Shown here in pieces: positions 6,414 through 19,223 of a DNA stretch of 19,224 nucleotides (the first letter of the stretch is position 1; each line of letters opens with the position of its first letter). The notes under the pieces were generated by a model that was not told where the DNA came from, searched no databases, and worked only from the letters and a program-made list of their open reading frames with translations. A program made the translations under genes and the position numbers. The stretch comes from Candidatus Thorarchaeota archaeon (lineage in GTDB: Archaea > Asgardarchaeota > Thorarchaeia > Thorarchaeales > Thorarchaeaceae): positions 1 through 19,224 of the forward strand of contig PRDJ01000081.1 in the NCBI GenBank assembly GCA_003345555.1. Direction: 5' to 3'.

Positions 6414-6842
6414 ATGGATCCTGTTGCACTCGTCATCGTATTGACTGGCATATCCCTTGCAGGCCTATTCAACTACATACTCAACCGGGCCGCTGGTGCA
6501 GAACCAGAGGATTTTGAAATCGGCCCCAACGGGATGGGAATCCGATGCGATTGTTTCATGAACGTTATCATCATTGCCGCCATTGCCGTGCTGGCAATGG
6601 CCCTTTCATCGGCCGCCTTTTCGTCTCGACTGGAATTGTATGTCACGGCAACTCTTGCTTTCGTCGCAATTGCTCTTTCTGGCCTCTTGGGTAGAAGGCG
6701 CAGGTACAATGAGTGGAGAGAGATGGAAGACATTCTAGAGCGAGTCGTGCCCGGCGACTATCTTGACATGACAGAAGAGGATATGGTGGATGTCCGATCT
6801 GATGACGACGATGAAGATTACGACGACGACACACAATTCTAG
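6414..6842 (+). CDS. Small membrane protein with about 3 TM helices and a very acidic C-terminal tail
   Basis: Three hydrophobic stretches, an RRRR stop-transfer, and a tail ending DDDDEDYDDDTQF. It starts 12 nt after the PIN gene. Confidence 0.75.
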   Translation: MDPVALVIVLTGISLAGLFNYILNRAAGAEPEDFEIGPNGMGIRCDCFMNVIIIAAIAVLAMALSSAAFSSRLELYVTATLAFVAIALSGLLGRRRRYNEWREMEDILERVVPGDYLDMTEEDMVDVRSDDDDEDYDDDTQF

Positions 6843-6954: not shown

Positions 6955-8103
6955 GTGCTTATGTCGAATCCTGCTGAAGGACGACTCCATTTGATATACA
7001 AGGTTCTAGTACTAGGGAACCCGCCGTCACTGCAAGCCGGATTCCTGAATCAGGTATCGGGAGGCGGCCTGTCATACCAACTCTATACGGCGTTGGGAAT
7101 CGGAATTGGAGTCGCGAGATTACCTAGCCCAGTCGGAGCCATCACACTTCAGCTCTGGCTGATTCCTTCTCGGAAACGATTTGCCGGTATAACGAGGAGG
7201 TTGATGAGAGGTGCGAATTCATCGATTGTAGTCCTCAGAGAGGAGGAGCTCGGAGCCCTGCATCAGCTCCTGCTTGAACTCACTCCCGAACAACAAGAGT
7301 CACTAATGATTGTCGTAGTGGGCTCACTGCTTGACCGCGAGAGCGTGAAACGCACGGTCGAAGATACTGTATGTAGCCGCTGTGAAATTCATCGTGCCCT
7401 TTCGGCGCAAGATGCACTTCATGCCCTATCGGAAGTCATGACTTCGCGCTTGAACGATGGGTTGCAGCGCGTCACAGTGATGCTCCTAGACGAAAGACAC
7501 TGCCCCGAGTTTCAGTTTCGACCGGACCAAGCGACCCTACCCGTGAATACGAAAGAAGAAAAACGAGAAATCAGGGAGTTTGCGCGTTCACTAGGAATCG
7601 GGGTCTCTGATACTGCCTGCGTCATAAGCCTTCATGAAGGAGTCGCAGAGATGGAACTTGCGACTGGTACGCTTCTTTTTCGCTCTAGGCTTTGCGAAGA
7701 ATGCAAAAGAGGATGTAAGAAGGCGGAGAGGATCTGCATCATAGGTCAAGACAAGGGGTGGTCCAGTCAAGGCATGGGTCCGAGAGCACTTCTAGCCATG
7801 GCAAAGCTTGAAGGACTCAACCGGGGAGAACTCCCGGCGGATGTGAGAGTGCAGATTGATAGAGCCGCTTGTTGCCCCACCTTCGTTCCAATACCCGGGT
7901 CAGAAATCAACGGATCCCGCTCCAAAGTGCGACCATCAAACCGATTGGTTGGCGCAGAACGTCCTACCCTTCTCGAAGAGGCCGAAATCAGAATGAAACA
8001 GGGCAGACTCTCGTCCTCAGTCTACAACATGCTAAAGAGCAAGCTTCAACGAGCCGAAAGTCGGTCTAATCGTCCTGAAGGTGCTGACAATAGATGCCGC
8101 TGA
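6955..8103 (+). CDS. Rab/Ras-fold pseudo-GTPase domain fused to a Cys-rich domain and a SHOCT-like tail
   Basis: IYKVLVLG, ALGIGIG, TLQLWLIPSRKRF, RGANSSIVV, IVVVGSLLD and LSAQ occur in the order and spacing of small-GTPase G1-G5 regions, but the catalytic residues are replaced. CEECKRGC(x6)C and a later CC follow. ATG 6961 is an alternative start. Confidence 0.6.
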   Translation: MLMSNPAEGRLHLIYKVLVLGNPPSLQAGFLNQVSGGGLSYQLYTALGIGIGVARLPSPVGAITLQLWLIPSRKRFAGITRRLMRGANSSIVVLREEELGALHQLLLELTPEQQESLMIVVVGSLLDRESVKRTVEDTVCSRCEIHRALSAQDALHALSEVMTSRLNDGLQRVTVMLLDERHCPEFQFRPDQATLPVNTKEEKREIREFARSLGIGVSDTACVISLHEGVAEMELATGTLLFRSRLCEECKRGCKKAERICIIGQDKGWSSQGMGPRALLAMAKLEGLNRGELPADVRVQIDRAACCPTFVPIPGSEINGSRSKVRPSNRLVGAERPTLLEEAEIRMKQGRLSSSVYNMLKSKLQRAESRSNRPEGADNRCR

Positions 8104-8597
8104 GAACGATTTCAGTGATTGGTAGCTCTGAGGCCGACGAAAAGACTCTGAAGTTGGCCGACAGCGTGGGGCAGGAAATAGCTAGAAGAGGCGTTGCCCT
8201 AGTTTGCGGTGGACTTGGCGGTGTTATGGAGGCGGCATGCCGTGGTGCCAAAAGACGCAACGGCGTAACGATTGGTCTACTCCCATCAGACAACAAGAAA
8301 GATGCAAATCAGTTTGTCGACATCGTGATTCCCACAGGTTTTGGCTATGCGAGGAATTTCCTTGTCGCGAGAACGGGAGACGCTATTATCGCAATAGGTG
8401 GCCAAGCCGGCACACTCAGCGAAATGGCGATTGGATGGTTCTCGGAAAAGCCTGTCGTAGCAATGGTTCATTCCGGCGGGTGGGCGCAGAGACTGGCCGG
8501 CAGTAGAATCGATGACAAAAGGCAGGACTTGGTCGCTTCGGCAGAAACCCCTGAACAGGCTGTTGATGCAGTGTTCAAAGCGCTAGGTTGGAAATGA
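8094..8597 (+). CDS. TIGR00725-family protein (LOG / DprA-Smf-like Rossmann fold, nucleotide-binding)
   Basis: ISVIGSS, LVCGGLGGVMEAACRGAK, TIGLLP, TGFGYARN, IAIGGQAGTLSE. It overlaps the upstream gene by 10 nt. Confidence 0.92.
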   Translation: MPLRTISVIGSSEADEKTLKLADSVGQEIARRGVALVCGGLGGVMEAACRGAKRRNGVTIGLLPSDNKKDANQFVDIVIPTGFGYARNFLVARTGDAIIAIGGQAGTLSEMAIGWFSEKPVVAMVHSGGWAQRLAGSRIDDKRQDLVASAETPEQAVDAVFKALGWK

Positions 8598-8688
8598 CAG
8601 TGCCACTGAGAGTACATTGTCCCACGACTCAGAATGAAGCAGATGCCAAGTGCGTCAAGTCCACTCAAACACTCAGAAGGAGAGCCCA

Positions 8689-9522
8689 ATGAACAAGAGC
8701 AGTCTGTTGTGGCGGGAGGACCTCTCGGCGGCCGAGATTCAGGAACTAACCTCTCTTGTTGCGGACAAGTATAAGGACGCTCCAAACCTCATTGTAGCAC
8801 CGGACAATGACGTGTTTTACGTGGGGGACCTACATGGCGAGCTGAAATCGGCTCTTGCTGCTCGGGATCTGCTCCTTGACAATCAAGGATCCTGTATGAT
8901 ATTCCTTGGAGACTATGCGGATAGAGGCCCCCAGCAGGTTGAGACCTTCAATCTTGTCTTATCTCTCGCAATAGAATACCCAACGAGAGTCTTCATGTTG
9001 AGAGGAAACCATGAGTCGTCAGAGATTGCTAGAGTATACGGCTTCTACCCGACCGTGTCAGAGCGCTATTCTCATGGGCTGTTTGATAGCTATTGCAGAG
9101 TATTCGAAGTCCTACCCCTTGCGGCGCTGAGTCCGGAAGGGCTCTTCGCGTGCCATGGTGGAGTGCCAGAGCGAGTAACTAGTAGTGAGCAGATACAAGA
9201 GATAGACAGATTCCACCCCAATTTCCCGGATGACACTGCATTCCAGCTCGTATGGAATGACCCAAGGGAAGCGGACTTCCGTTTCAGGCAAAGCTACCGC
9301 TCGGACCGAGCTAGGGAGTTTGGTCGACGTGCTTTCGAGGAGTTTGCCTCAAACCTTGGAATCCAGCTAATGATTAGGGGTCATGAGGCCTTCGAAAATG
9401 GATATCAATACTTCTTCGACGGGAGACTCATGAGTGTCTTTAGCGCTTCTTACGGGGGAGCAGTGAATCCGAAAGTGATTAGAGTCCGAAACGGACTCAA
9501 GATTGAAGTCGTCAGCATCTAA
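8689..9522 (+). CDS. PPP-family Ser/Thr protein phosphatase (PP1/PP2A-like metallophosphoesterase)
   Basis: VGDLHG, FLGDYADRG, LRGNHE, CHGG, LVWNDP, IRGHE. I chose ATG 8689 (5 nt after GGAGA) over the track's GTG 8650. Confidence 0.92.
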   Translation: MNKSSLLWREDLSAAEIQELTSLVADKYKDAPNLIVAPDNDVFYVGDLHGELKSALAARDLLLDNQGSCMIFLGDYADRGPQQVETFNLVLSLAIEYPTRVFMLRGNHESSEIARVYGFYPTVSERYSHGLFDSYCRVFEVLPLAALSPEGLFACHGGVPERVTSSEQIQEIDRFHPNFPDDTAFQLVWNDPREADFRFRQSYRSDRAREFGRRAFEEFASNLGIQLMIRGHEAFENGYQYFFDGRLMSVFSASYGGAVNPKVIRVRNGLKIEVVSI

Positions 9523-14588: not shown

Positions 14589-17500
14589 CTAATCTAGCTC
14601 AATACCCAGACTGTCAAGAAGTGCCTTGAGGTCGGCTTTTGAGAGTGACTTTGCCTGATCGAGGATAATGTCCACTTCCTCAGGCGCCATTCCCTTCTTC
14701 TGAAGCTTCATCTTCAGCTCCTCCATTTCGGTGGGCTTTGCTCCAAGAAGCTCCTTCTCCGGCTTAACCGCAGGCTTCTCAGCGGCCTTCTCTCCCAAAG
14801 CTTCAGCTCGTCGTGCCTGCTCTTGGGCGATGACCTCACGCAGGAAACCGGGTCTCTCACTAGGTTTCATGCGTGCCAAGTCGGAACGGAAGGCCTCCAC
14901 TTCCTTTGCACCCAAGCCAGTTATGGATGCCAGTTGCTCTAGGAGATCGTTGACCTCAGGAACAACGATTACTATCGGTTCCGCGGCGATATCCTCTGCT
15001 AGCTTCTGAATACCAACGGGCTTCAGTTCCTTGTTGACAATGTCTTGTATGCCCTCCAATCTAGAGTGCACCCTTGCAGGACGTGGAACCTTGCCTCTTC
15101 TCAGCGAAGAAATCATCCGATTCATGATACGCACAAGTTTGGGGATGCTCCAGACCCGCACGTAAAGGCCAACAAGAGCCGCACCTATTATCAGAAACGC
15201 GCCACCGATGACAGTTAGTCTCTGGAAGAAGACTTGTTGAGCTGAGATGTCAGATCTGATTGTTATCGGCAGAGTCTTTGTAGTGTATTGCCCTCTTGAG
15301 AACTGAATTGTGACATGGAAGGTGCCACCAGCGTTGACACCAAGGTAGAGCACGTAGGTACCGTTGCCGAGATCTTTTGTGTTGTCAACAAGGTATGTGA
15401 CATTGGCTCCTGTGGTTACCAGGGGCAGAGCGCCAGTGATGCCCACGCTGTGATCAAGATCATAGTAGGTGATGGGCAATGCCACAACAGCACCCGGCAC
15501 TGTCGATATGGTCGTGTTTGCTATTGTCAGTTCGGTGTTGACCTGTCTTACAGTCAAATCAAAGGTGAAGGGATCTATCTGGTAGATGGATGTGGCAAAT
15601 GCGATTTCGATCCTGTACAACCCAAGCGGCAGAGTACCTGCGATATCAAGCCTGTAACTACCGTTGCCCATCTGGGTCAGCGGCAACTCGCCAATCCCGG
15701 ACCAATATGATATGCCGTTGATTCCTGTCACGACCTCGTCGGTCAGCGAGTCAATCACAGTGAAGACGACAAATGCGGTGTCATTGACTGGAAGTGATAT
15801 TGAGTCCTGTCCGAATATCTCAGCGGGGGTAGCTCGGATTATGAGGTTCACCTTGACTGTAGATGATGCGTAGTTGCTCTTGGCAAGAGACACGGTCATT
15901 TCATAGAGGCGAGGATTGAGCAGAGATAGCTTTGTCACAAGGAGGTAGCTTCCATTGCCCAAGTCAGTAACGTTTGCGACGCCGCCTGCCCAACCCGCTG
16001 ATACTGCAGCACCTGCCAATGGCGTGGCTGCGAGACTGTCATTGAAGTATACGGTAAACGACACGATATCTCCGTAGTACCCGTCTCTCGTGAGTGGGTT
16101 AACAGCCGACACAGTTGGGCGTGGCAGTATGTTCGTAATCACAGTCCTTGTGGCTGTAGCGTATCCTTCCTTCGAACCGGTGATCCGAAGATAGAACGAC
16201 TCTGCCGATAGTGAGGAGGTATTAATCAATGCCCGGTATGTGTGATTCGGCAGTTCCTGGAACGAGCCCGCAAGATTCCCGAGTACATAGGTCACGTTTG
16301 CTCCACCGACCAAGCCGCCGTGGTACGTGTCATTGTAAGTCACGAGCAAATCAATCACATTGCCGTACACGACTGTAAATGAGGTCGCGCCATCCGCTAG
16401 TTGCACACGAGTAGGCACGGGAGCCACATAGACGTCGATGACATAATCTAAGAAAACATGGTTAGTCTCGAATGCCCTAAGTGTCGCAGGGTAACGGCCG
16501 ATATCCAGACCACTGACGTTCACGCTGGCGAGATAGAACCCTGGTGTTCCATTGTATACCAGCACGTAGATTTGATTGTTCCAATCAATTGAGACATTGT
16601 CGGCTATGACAGGTCTGTTTGTCACAGTATCGTTCAAGTAGACCCAGAACGACCCTGTGGTTTCCGTGACTATGTCGTACGTTGACTGTGAGGGCATAAT
16701 CTGACCAGCGGCTCTGGAAACAATCAGTACGAGAGACTGTGTGCGAGTTTGATAGTACTGTCTCGAGACCGAGACCTGGGGCTCGTGATAACCGTAGTCT
16801 GCGGCGGAGGTGTCAAGGTTCAATGTATATGTTCCATTACCAATGTCCAAGAATGGATATACAGTGCCGTTCCAGAGAAGGGTGGCATTCATGTGTGGCA
16901 CGAGAGTGAAGTACAGAGTCTCCCGGACATCCATTCGTATTAGGACAAGCTGTCCCCAGTCTGCATAGTACACGCTTTTCTCAAGGGTGATGACCACGGA
17001 TGTTGAGCCCGGCTGCACAACGACATTGATGGTCGAGATCTGATAGAATGTCTTCTGTGCGTTGACAGTGAACGTGTACGGTTGCGCTACTAGGCCTGTT
17101 GTGTTCAGCGTTATCCTGTACGAACCACCTCCGATTTCCAGGATTGTGAAGCTTCTACCGTACCTAGTTTGCCAATCGCAGGTAATGACTGCTCCAGCCA
17201 GCGGTAGACCATGGTCCAAGTCGGAGAGGGTCAGGTTAACGACAAACGGATCACCTATCGGGCGTGTGCCCGCGGGTGGCACTTCTGCGAGCAAAGACGT
17301 CTGGATTGATCGGATGACCGCAGGTACATTGCTGGTCGTCCTTGCTGCGTAGTGGTAAGGCGCGCCGGTCTTGTTTGCAGTCAGAGCAAAGAAGACGGTC
17401 CCTGTGCCGCCGAACTGCTGTGTAGGAACAAGAATGCGGTATGCGCCGCCGCCCATCTGAAACACGTAGTAGATCGGAGAAGTCAGGTTAGTGCTGGTCA

Positions 17501-19223
17501 GATAGATGGACGCACCCGGTATGCCAACTCCCGAGATGTAGTCTGTATACTCGAAGTTCAGCGTAAGGTTGTCCAAGTATGGAGTCTCCGAGACAAGTGG
17601 GAACAGAATCTGAGTCTGGCGTTCGACAGTGGTCGCATATGTTGTTGTGCTCTTCGCCGCATAGTATGGTACGGTAGTACTTCTGTTGATAGCCAGTTGA
17701 ACCGATTTTCCGACAACAAGGTTGACTGGATCCAGAAGTGTCGAATTGAACTTGATCTCGTAATAGCTACCGTAATTCGTCAGTGTGTAATCTGATGAAC
17801 CAAGAACGTAAGTACCCCCGAGAACCAGCGTGATGTTACTCTTGGTTACGGCGATGTTCGAACCGGTTATGAAATCGATATACCTGAACCTGAATGTGAC
17901 AAGCTCCCTGAATTGAGTCTCTCCAGGCGTCTGTATTATGAGTATCTGCGTCGCTCTTTGTGTGATCCGAGAGTTCACATTCCTAGTTGAGGGCATGTAG
18001 AATGGCGAACCAGCTCGCGAGAGTGTCACGCCTAGTACGTACGTTCCAATTCTCCCGAGTGCCATGCTGCTCACCTTGATTTCGTATACTCCCTGACCTA
18101 GCGATGAAACCCAGTAGTTGCTGTTTTGCACAAGTGGGAGCGAGGAATTGGAACAGGTCAATGACCCGACTGCGCCGACTATGCCTAGGCCAGTCGTGTC
18201 ATCGGTGTAGGTCACTGTGAATGTGACATTCTCGAGGTATGCAGTTGGATCCGGTGTCTCATATCCGAGTTGAGTGCTCCGTTTGAGAACGGACGCGCTG
18301 ACATAATCAATGGCATTGCTTACATAGTTCGAACCTGTATAGACGATCGTTGCGTTGAGCACGAATGTCCCGTCCGATACCAGAGCATATGTGTCAAGAG
18401 TGAGTTGATAGTGACCGTTCCCAAGTGACACGACTGTATAGTGACCGGACAGAGAGCTATTGAGCATCAGCGTACCTGTCATCCCGGCCGAGCTTCCCGA
18501 GACCAAATCGGTATAGACGAACTCGACTACGAGACTGTTTCCGTATTGAGGAGGAGTGAAGGGCTCGTGTGTGAGCTGACTGCTCCTCAAAATCACAACG
18601 ACAACGAAGGCCTTGCTTCCCACCGCGGCATAGAAAGGCACGCCAGTCCAAGTGATATTGAGATGAAGGGTGTAGGTTCCGACCCCTCCAATGGTTCGAG
18701 TGTCGATGGATAGGTTGAAGGTGCGCTGGGCGGAATTGTACGTTAGTACGTACGACACTGAACCTTCGTTGAGTCGTACGGCAAGCTGGCCAGAGTTCGG
18801 AATGCGGGTTGTTGTTAGAGTGTCAAGATAACTGAAGGTGAATGTGGCATTTTCCCCGTATGGGGTGGACTGGATTGGAGTTGGATCGACGTAGGTAGGC
18901 CTCTGAAGAACCACAAGAGTCACCGTCATCGTGCGGTTCTCATACAGAGGTGTTATGCCCTTGCTCCACATGAACTCGAGCTGGAACACGAATGAGCCGC
19001 ATTTACCGAAGAGCGAGCTGTTGAGCTTGAAGCTGTAGACACCAGGGCTGCCACCCACTTCAGATACCTTGAACTGAGCTTGAGTGACACTGTGGCCACC
19101 TGTAAGCGGAGTTATCCTCAGAAAGACGTGGTTCGTGGAATTAGAGATCTTACTCCCGTTCACCATATCCCAATATACAGTGGTGAATGAAAGATTCTGA
19201 AGGTAGTAGGCGGCGCTGGGTGC
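14589..19223 (-). CDS. Giant cell-surface glycoprotein: tandem ~100-aa beta-sandwich (Ig-like) repeats, one TM helix, ~190-aa cytoplasmic tail; 5' truncated by the window edge
   Basis: The frame stays open past ATG 19166 to the window end (APSAAYYLQNLSFTTVYWD-M). It has recurrent repeat motifs, a TM segment LTVIGGAFLIIGAALVGLYV at about 15159-15218, and many NxS/T sequons before the TM. Confidence 0.9.
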   Translation of the reverse strand, partial: APSAAYYLQNLSFTTVYWDMVNGSKISNSTNHVFLRITPLTGGHSVTQAQFKVSEVGGSPGVYSFKLNSSLFGKCGSFVFQLEFMWSKGITPLYENRTMTVTLVVLQRPTYVDPTPIQSTPYGENATFTFSYLDTLTTTRIPNSGQLAVRLNEGSVSYVLTYNSAQRTFNLSIDTRTIGGVGTYTLHLNITWTGVPFYAAVGSKAFVVVVILRSSQLTHEPFTPPQYGNSLVVEFVYTDLVSGSSAGMTGTLMLNSSLSGHYTVVSLGNGHYQLTLDTYALVSDGTFVLNATIVYTGSNYVSNAIDYVSASVLKRSTQLGYETPDPTAYLENVTFTVTYTDDTTGLGIVGAVGSLTCSNSSLPLVQNSNYWVSSLGQGVYEIKVSSMALGRIGTYVLGVTLSRAGSPFYMPSTRNVNSRITQRATQILIIQTPGETQFRELVTFRFRYIDFITGSNIAVTKSNITLVLGGTYVLGSSDYTLTNYGSYYEIKFNSTLLDPVNLVVGKSVQLAINRSTTVPYYAAKSTTTYATTVERQTQILFPLVSETPYLDNLTLNFEYTDYISGVGIPGASIYLTSTNLTSPIYYVFQMGGGAYRILVPTQQFGGTGTVFFALTANKTGAPYHYAARTTSNVPAVIRSIQTSLLAEVPPAGTRPIGDPFVVNLTLSDLDHGLPLAGAVITCDWQTRYGRSFTILEIGGGSYRITLNTTGLVAQPYTFTVNAQKTFYQISTINVVVQPGSTSVVITLEKSVYYADWGQLVLIRMDVRETLYFTLVPHMNATLLWNGTVYPFLDIGNGTYTLNLDTSAADYGYHEPQVSVSRQYYQTRTQSLVLIVSRAAGQIMPSQSTYDIVTETTGSFWVYLNDTVTNRPVIADNVSIDWNNQIYVLVYNGTPGFYLASVNVSGLDIGRYPATLRAFETNHVFLDYVIDVYVAPVPTRVQLADGATSFTVVYGNVIDLLVTYNDTYHGGLVGGANVTYVLGNLAGSFQELPNHTYRALINTSSLSAESFYLRITGSKEGYATATRTVITNILPRPTVSAVNPLTRDGYYGDIVSFTVYFNDSLAATPLAGAAVSAGWAGGVANVTDLGNGSYLLVTKLSLLNPRLYEMTVSLAKSNYASSTVKVNLIIRATPAEIFGQDSISLPVNDTAFVVFTVIDSLTDEVVTGINGISYWSGIGELPLTQMGNGSYRLDIAGTLPLGLYRIEIAFATSIYQIDPFTFDLTVRQVNTELTIANTTISTVPGAVVALPITYYDLDHSVGITGALPLVTTGANVTYLVDNTKDLGNGTYVLYLGVNAGGTFHVTIQFSRGQYTTKTLPITIRSDISAQQVFFQRLTVIGGAFLIIGAALVGLYVRVWSIPKLVRIMNRMISSLRRGKVPRPARVHSRLEGIQDIVNKELKPVGIQKLAEDIAAEPIVIVVPEVNDLLEQLASITGLGAKEVEAFRSDLARMKPSERPGFLREVIAQEQARRAEALGEKAAEKPAVKPEKELLGAKPTEMEELKMKLQKKGMAPEEVDIILDQAKSLSKADLKALLDSLGIELD
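15240..19223 (-). repeat. About 12-13 degenerate protein-level repeats of roughly 95-110 aa
   Basis: Recurring unit: R-x-T...(P)YG/YL(E/D)NxTFxxxYxD...GxxIxGA...(L/M)GxGxYxxxxxT...GxYxxxxx...PxY. Boundaries fall at QRPT, LRSS, KRST, QRAT, ERQT, SIQT, PGST, RAAG, PVPT, PRPT, RATP and QVNT. DNA-level identity between units is not obvious. Confidence 0.8.

Follow-up and report, generated by a model that had tools for sequence, protein, structure and literature searches.

The window analysed here spans positions 1–19,224 of contig PRDJ01000081.1 from the genome of a Candidatus Thorarchaeota archaeon (assembly GCA_003345555.1), which is an Asgard host, as the original prediction had it. It carries on the forward strand an open reading frame (ORF) for a protein of three parts: a Rab-like N-terminal domain, a Cys-rich module and a helical hairpin tail. 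Two further genes, for a SLOG cluster 4 protein (SLOG4) and a calcineurin-like metallophosphoesterase (Metallophos), follow it (Table 1). The original prediction had described a Rab-like pseudo-GTPase with degenerate G motifs, fused to a Cys cluster and a SHOCT-like tail; the ORF lies exactly where it had been placed, and every motif string quoted for it was found in the protein at the expected residues. We found that the N-terminal domain has the fold of a Rab GTPase and that the nucleotide-binding motifs are missing both in this protein and in all relatives sharing its C-terminal module. Annotation pipelines label the protein hypothetical, as had been expected, and the whole protein has no match in Pfam or NCBIfam. 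Residue numbers are counted from the GTG at 6955. Homologues start with M-x(9-12)-LIxKVLVLG, and in the ESM Atlas the record begins at residue 3; therefore the ATG at 6961 is the likelier true start.

Table 1. Features of the Rab-like gene and of the two genes downstream of it (positions in the window).
Feature	Residues	Position	Strand	Remarks
Whole ORF		6955..8103	+	382 aa from the GTG; 380 aa from the probable ATG start
Rab-like, predicted pseudo-G domain	~10-180	6982..7494	+	AlphaFold2, Foldseek, VIA-align, phmmer against PDB Rabs
Degenerate G1/P-loop, GNPPSLQA (for GxxxxGK[ST])	21-28	7015..7038	+	Alignment and AlphaFold2 model
G2/RabF1 remnant, ALGIGI (TIGVDF in Rabs)	46-51	7090..7107	+	G48 nearly invariant across the family
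G3 region, LQLWLIPSRKRF	65-76	7147..7182	+	RabF2-like LQLW retained, W68 nearly invariant; DxxGQ gone
RabF4-like, LMRGANS (YYRGA in Rabs)	83-89	7201..7221	+	G86 invariant
Degenerate G4, GSLLD (for GNKxD)	123-127	7321..7335	+	Alignment
G5 remnant, LSAQ (SAK in Rabs)	149-152	7399..7410	+	Not conserved across the family
Mobile Cys-rich alpha/beta module	200-312	7552..7890	+	Helix, 3-4 strands, Cys knuckle, GWSS motif, two helices
C247-x2-C250-x3-C254-x6-C261	247-261	7693..7737	+	C247, C250, C261 invariant; C254 at least 90% (64-72 sequences)
C307, fifth conserved Cys	307	7873..7875	+	At least 90% (64-72 sequences); end of the module's last helix
C-terminal helical hairpin, LLEEA..R...GRL....Y..L...L	337-372	7963..8070	+	Conserved in the core orthologue group only
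SLOG cluster 4 / TIGR00725 gene		8094..8597	+	ATG 10 nt inside the 3' end of the Rab-like gene; always directly downstream of orthologues
Calcineurin-like metallophosphoesterase gene		8650..9522	+	Third gene of the conserved trio

The likeness of the N-terminal domain to Rabs is beyond chance. A phmmer search against the sequences of the PDB returned 131 chains, all of them small GTPases and mostly Rabs, with Rab7 as the best match (E 1.8e-4, residues 6–137). In the alignment with Rab7 the motif strings of the original prediction land on G1, switch I, G3, YYRGA and G4, and the same register was reproduced by MAFFT with intact Ras domains and by HMMER against Rab7, Rab3B and Rab25. The AlphaFold2 model of the protein, computed with a 64-sequence alignment as input, reached a mean pLDDT (predicted local distance difference test) of 88.9. 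Foldseek matched it to Rab structures at E 1e-7 with a probability of 1.00, Rab-type GTPases being the top 500 PDB matches listed, and VIA-align gave Z-scores of 15.9 to 13.6 over approximately 145–158 residues, with a best root-mean-square deviation (rmsd) of 2.5 Å over 151 residues. By both measures the predicted fold is the P-loop G-domain fold that had been proposed and not another one. The Pfam Ras model (PF00071) scores the protein with 14.2 bits (E 0.03), under the gathering threshold of 21.6 bits. Paralogues of identical architecture clear this threshold with up to 87 bits. In more distant branches, which also clear the threshold, TIGxDF and the WD of G3 are still present; homology to Ras therefore follows by transitivity.

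The ten best chains in the VIA-align comparison were Rabs complexed with their guanine nucleotide exchange factors (GEFs), several of them nucleotide-free: Ypt7-Mon1-Ccz1, Rab23-Fuzzy-Inturned, Rab8-Rabin8, Rab11-SH3BP5, Rab8-GRAB, Sec4-Sec2, TRAPPII-Ypt32 and MON1A-CCZ1-RAB7A were among these top chains. Nucleotide-bound Rabs scored 1–2 Z units lower. With this small margin, the preference for GEF-bound Rabs would fit a domain whose model has no nucleotide pocket.

All five G motifs had been described as degenerate, which proved right for G1 to G4; G5 (SAQ) is only weakened, differing from SAK by a conservative change, and has been lost in most relatives. At G3 the protein reads LIPSRK and at G4 SLLD, so that neither DxxG(Q) nor [NT]KxD is present. 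A P-loop requires about six residues between strand 1 and helix 1; in the AlphaFold2 model a single residue connects the two, and the P-loop is absent. Of the Rab signatures, RabF2 (LQLW), RabF3 (RFAGIT) and RabF4 (RGA) are recognisable, and RabF1 and RabF5 are weak (motif definitions partly from PMC10933270). A canonical prenylation motif (CC, CXC or CAAX) was not found at the C-terminus, which reads ...NRCR. In the closest subclade (window positions 8089–8100, residues 379–382, NRCR; orthologues P0003–P0009) a single Cys is conserved 2–4 residues from the C-terminus, with the endings CR, CH, CG and CRLE; it is absent from the remaining family. This terminal Cys is faintly reminiscent of the C-terminal lipidation sites of Rabs, the motif being non-canonical.

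An exhaustive HMMER search over 1.84 billion representatives yielded 82 relatives, 30 of them with E < 1e-30. We built one alignment from three genuine Ras domains and the N-terminal domains of the 64 proteins that share the C-terminal module. GxxxxGK[ST], the glycine of DxxG and NKxD occur in none of the 64 module-bearing relatives. The most conserved columns of the domain are G21, G48, W68 and G86, which are RabF1/RabF2/RabF4 positions of the switch/interswitch surface and not nucleotide contacts. Judged from this alignment, the loss of the motifs would be ancestral to the family. Candidates for intact versions of the architecture were considered and discarded: P0070, P0085 and P0089, which have an intact P-loop, are tandem genuine Ras proteins matching over the N-terminal domain only. 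Similarly, sub-threshold Ras matches on contigs C21 and C34, considered as possible paralogues, turned out to be ordinary Nog1-like and MglA-like GTPases whose motifs are intact. The genome of the Thorarchaeon contains 16 canonical Ras-family genes, and the gene described here is the only one without a P-loop that was detected.

We estimated the ratio of nonsynonymous to synonymous substitution rates (dN/dS) against the closest orthologue with available DNA, from a Thorarchaeota metagenome-assembled genome (66% identity). The ratio was 0.15 with NG86 and 0.18 with YN00; with a dS of 1.3–1.5, near saturation, these values are rough, though far from 1. Per region the ratio was 0.10 for the N-terminal domain, 0.13 for the Cys module, 0.13 for the tail and 0.24–0.47 for the linkers. 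Neighboring genes gave 0.03–0.09 with NG86 and up to 0.14 with YN00, the exception being the small upstream gene TM142 (0.19–0.37). As read from these ratios, purifying selection is acting on all three folded parts of the protein.

This bears directly on whether the gene is a former Rab that is decaying into a pseudogene. The gene is the fastest-evolving one of its block, sister genera have lost it repeatedly, and two genomes retain tail-only remnants, all of which could be expected from such decay. Against this stand full-length open frames in dozens of genomes of Thorarchaeota and Hodarchaeota, a dN/dS of about 0.15 with 0.10–0.13 in both folded domains, invariant cysteines and a confident fold. 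Decay is thereby effectively refuted, and the expectation that the degenerate state is itself conserved held up: no relative with intact motifs was found among the 64, and dN/dS is nowhere near 1.

A domain without canonical motifs might nevertheless be a cryptic NTPase or nucleotide switch using non-canonical residues, or bind another nucleotide-derived ligand. As a general point, some supposed pseudoenzymes have migrated catalytic residues (PMC10211241). The two neighboring genes belong to nucleotide-processing families, and a few distant paralogues retain a K-T pair ending the G1 position, e.g. GPEEGFKT. However, G1, G3 and G4 were lost together in this protein and in all its close orthologues, the modelled link between strand 1 and helix 1 is too short for a phosphate-binding loop, and the NKxD motif for guanine specificity is missing throughout the 64 members. 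We therefore regard a cryptic nucleotide switch as quite improbable.

The second part of the protein, for which a downstream cluster of conserved cysteines had been predicted, does contain one. The adjacent pair "CC" of that prediction (C306/C307) was half right, since C307 is conserved and C306 is not; C183 is conserved in the core group only. Between the Cys knuckle and the two helices of the module lies the motif ICIxGxxxGWSS. Modelled alone, the module has a pLDDT of 87.5. It was also found as a protein on its own. In two proteins, P0082 (L015:5001-5726) and P0083, it precedes a TFIIB cyclin repeat (PF00382, E 5e-11) and a GTPase-like domain is lacking; P0082 comes from the same assembly as the paralogue P0062. 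The slot N-terminal to a TFIIB cyclin repeat is normally occupied by the Zn ribbon and B-reader of TFB, and support for reading the module as a TFB Zn ribbon was not found.

No Zn-ribbon, Fe-S or other Pfam family matches the module in any member of the family. In the PDB, Foldseek returned nothing under E 0.25 with the module as query, and in the ESM Atlas a search by shape gave template modelling scores of at most 0.38 and a search by features no usable match. Most of the whole-module structural matches were to UBC/UEV/RWD domains (BRCC45 UEV, FANCL ELF, Tsg101 UEV, VPS37A UEVL, Atg10), with which the module shares the order of helix, four-strand sheet and two helices. These domains lack the Cys cluster and show no sequence signal to the module; the best of them reached Z 4.8 (6h3c_C, 99 residues, rmsd 3.8 Å) and several UEV-like ones Z 3.9–4.1, all under the noise level of the tool. 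The five-Cys module is thus probably a new domain without a Pfam entry or structural match. Its cysteine pattern suggests a metal site: Zn is somewhat favoured, an Fe-S cluster is clearly less likely, and a module binding neither of them would be a surprise.

Given the conservation of this module, the protein could also be a sensor or regulator whose functional core is the Cys module, either as a redox/Fe-S sensor or as a binder of nucleic acids or RNA polymerase, with the Rab-like domain as a mere platform. The invariant columns of the family cluster in the C-terminal module, and the module is mobile, occurring without the GTPase-like domain and even N-terminal to the TFIIB cyclin repeat. The pattern C-x2-C-x3-C-x6-C with a distal Cys also recalls the spacings of Fe-S sensors such as FNR. 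On the other hand, the module matches no Fe-S, Zn-ribbon or DNA-binding family, the TFIIB fusion is confined to those two proteins, and the N-terminal domain is equally constrained (0.10 in comparison to 0.13 for the module), which speaks against a mere platform. We consider this explanation rather unlikely, but the most serious of the alternatives.

The SHOCT-like character predicted for the tail could not be substantiated. The string LLEEAEIRMKQGRLSSSVYNMLKSKL, quoted for it, is present at residues 339–364, and its spacing fits the SHOCT consensus by eye, which is a resemblance of pattern. The SHOCT hidden Markov model (HMM; PF09851) did not match the protein (E ≤ 10), 72 members of the family (E ≤ 1) or the orthologues in six-frame searches of 61 genomes. 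A similarity of the tail to the Rab-GEF Sec2 was likewise dismissed as helical composition: a profile of the tail brought up nothing but Sec2 in the PDB sequences, at E 0.87–2.4, and the Sec2p HMM (PF06428) misses the protein. This model matches generic coiled coils and also scores in 10 of 14 control genomes. Its sole sub-threshold match in the genome of the Thorarchaeon (22.6 bits) is a 371-aa protein (G000:C37:26091-27206; L036:1592-2707) whose N-terminal part carries transmembrane segments and which has a long coiled coil; here the match probably reflects coiled-coil composition. In two sister genomes (G362, L060:1287-1481; G364, L066:1371-1478) a tail remnant with about 50% identity to residues 337–372 is located just upstream of SLOG4. 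The gene may have been lost there with this piece left behind, or the piece may be a micro-ORF that has been kept.

Named records of the family come from Asgard archaea only, those of Thorarchaeota being closest and others belonging to Promethearchaeota and Hodarchaeota. With a profile of the core family, full-length single-copy orthologues were detected in at least 51 of the 85 genomes of the window's own family. Many further Asgard families gave weaker profile matches (169 of 400 genomes), for the most part to the Cys module inside frames of about 350 aa. Some Asgard genomes hold two to four two-domain relatives, some of them in tandem (L038:2825-3844 and L038:4239-5009 on G125:C35; G124:C264). 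Eight DNA runs of wetland metagenomes, drawn from four studies, contain the locus, and four of the eight are flagged as possible sources of this DNA. Among the runs listed as holding the locus there were no RNA datasets.

The order of the Rab-like gene, SLOG4 and Metallophos is kept in 16 of 16 sister loci as well as on one Hodarchaeota contig. In Thorarchaeota and Hodarchaeota the gene may thus be co-transcribed with those for a SLOG/LOG-like nucleotide-binding protein and a metallophosphoesterase. Going by synteny, cooperation with SLOG4 and the phosphoesterase would be probable. A complex prediction for the protein with SLOG4 gave a score of 0.00 in a run without controls and is evidence neither for nor against binding. 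In a paralogous branch from other Asgard families, a UPF0047/YjbQ gene is located immediately downstream and at times overlaps (L051:6816-7235, L041:6073-6501, L046:6001-6420, L013:7128-7553), suggesting that different paralogues have different operon partners.

Further downstream of the trio lies a putative lipid-linked glycan operon (DUF362, UbiA, PHP, flippase-like), and the protein might be an accessory factor of this operon, the adjacency of SLOG4 and Metallophos being incidental. From the Rab-like gene through to the flippase-like one, all genes of the block point the same way and lie close together, and the block is syntenic in Thorarchaeota. Yet the block is intact in sister genomes that lost the Rab-like gene, the short Hodarchaeota contig shows the trio only, and paralogues elsewhere have unrelated neighbors, leaving this possibility very remote. 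Upstream, an ORF of 142 aa (6414–6842, + strand) has weak matches to DUF4231/DUF7269 and an acidic D/E tail, evolves fast (dN/dS 0.19–0.37) and is syntenic with a PIN-domain gene in Thorarchaeota. At the far end of the window a giant ORF of more than 1,500 aa (14589–19223, – strand) runs off the window; in related genomes its counterparts in the same position have 41–76% identity, with called products of up to about 2,600 aa.

In comparison to Rab GTPases (PF00071), the protein shares the G-domain fold, with Z-scores of up to 15.9, sequence homology and the RabF-like strings LQLW, RFAGIT and RGA. It differs in its degenerate G1–G4 and weakened G5, in a 200-residue C-terminal extension with the Cys module and in having no canonical prenylation motif. 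Rag/Gtr GTPases, which are abundant in Asgard archaea, are of similar size (approximately 310–400 aa) and likewise consist of a small-GTPase domain followed by an alpha/beta domain, there of dimerisation type. Their G domains are intact, however, and in the module described here a helix and strands are followed by the Cys knuckle and two helices, unlike in a roadblock domain; among the structural matches listed for it, chains of roadblock or longin type did not occur. The closest parallel in kind is found in the pseudoGTPases of eukaryotes and bacteria, e.g. pG1/pG2 of p190RhoGAP or the N-terminal domain of AAGAB (PMC5593906, PMC12490416). Common to these and to our protein are a GTPase fold minus the nucleotide motifs, a multidomain context and proposed protein-protein contacts. 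In contrast to them it is of independent, Rab-like Asgard origin and has an archaeal host and a different partner domain. Both the fold and the conserved motif loss of the pseudoGTPase class are present, and failure to bind nucleotide is predicted.

Taken together, we favor, with a probability of roughly 60%, that the gene is real and selectively maintained and codes for a Rab-like scaffold that works independently of nucleotide and carries a metal-binding module. In this scheme a Rab-derived G domain lacking the P-loop Lys/Ser, the switch-II DxxG and the guanine-specificity motif NKxD, with the Rab signature residues of interswitch and switch II kept, would neither bind nor hydrolyse GTP in the canonical manner. 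It would adopt an "empty-like" shape and hence be a pseudo-GTPase. The module of about 110 residues would hold a structural Zn or, less likely, an Fe-S cluster through its five conserved cysteines. Most likely the protein would act by contacting other proteins, using the switch/interswitch surface kept from Rabs along with the Cys module.

Several observations weigh against this interpretation. The preference for GEF-bound Rabs is a gap of just 1–2 Z units and derives from a predicted model, and the dN/dS values suffer from the saturation mentioned above. With 32% identity, where its neighbors have 45–80%, the protein evolves 2–4 times faster than the rest of its block. The Cys module is without a convincing structural relative, the best Z-score against the 48,161 chains of the VIA-align search being below noise. 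Two-domain relatives in other Asgard families do not have SLOG4 and Metallophos as neighbors, and SLOG4 is far more widespread than the Rab-like gene (112 of 151 genomes); the functional link may therefore be lineage-specific or coincidental. Finally, about ten sister genomes have lost the gene, keeping the arrangement PIN-TM-(0.5–0.9 kb)-SLOG4-Metallophos. Because of this repeated loss the gene must be regarded as dispensable, though it is constrained where present.

A more far-reaching version can be formulated, which we offer as speculation and hold to be unlikely as it stands. The family might represent ancient Rab-derived switches of Asgard archaea in which the GTP input has been replaced: the G domain would be fixed in a nucleotide-free form resembling GEF-bound Rabs, possibly stabilised by the protein's own C-terminal helices, and a metal- or redox-sensitive five-Cys module, the same as in TFB-like factors, would provide the regulation. 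If true, the closest prokaryotic relatives of eukaryotes would possess a new domain for signalling, and the family would be the first of archaeal pseudoGTPases.

Few eukaryote-like proteins have expanded as strongly in Asgard archaea as the small GTPases, which are central to arguments on the origin of membrane trafficking and signalling. Published Asgard surveys focus on intact Rab, Arf and Rag-like proteins, and the most detailed one leaves "rapidly evolving derivatives" unannotated (10.1101/2024.02.28.582541). Full-text literature searches brought up no account of a pseudoGTPase from archaea or of the present architecture, and the family looks like the first "dead" small GTPase from archaea. 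Its small size, its solubility and the confident model make the protein amenable to biochemical work. The family occurs patchily and its hosts can evidently do without it, but it is relevant to how GTPase signalling evolved close to the origin of eukaryotes. The conversion of a GTPase into a scaffold was known before in eukaryotes and has been reported in bacteria. A conserved, selected Rab-like family without a P-loop would show that turning a GTPase into a nucleotide-independent scaffold is older than eukaryotes or happened in parallel in their nearest relatives.

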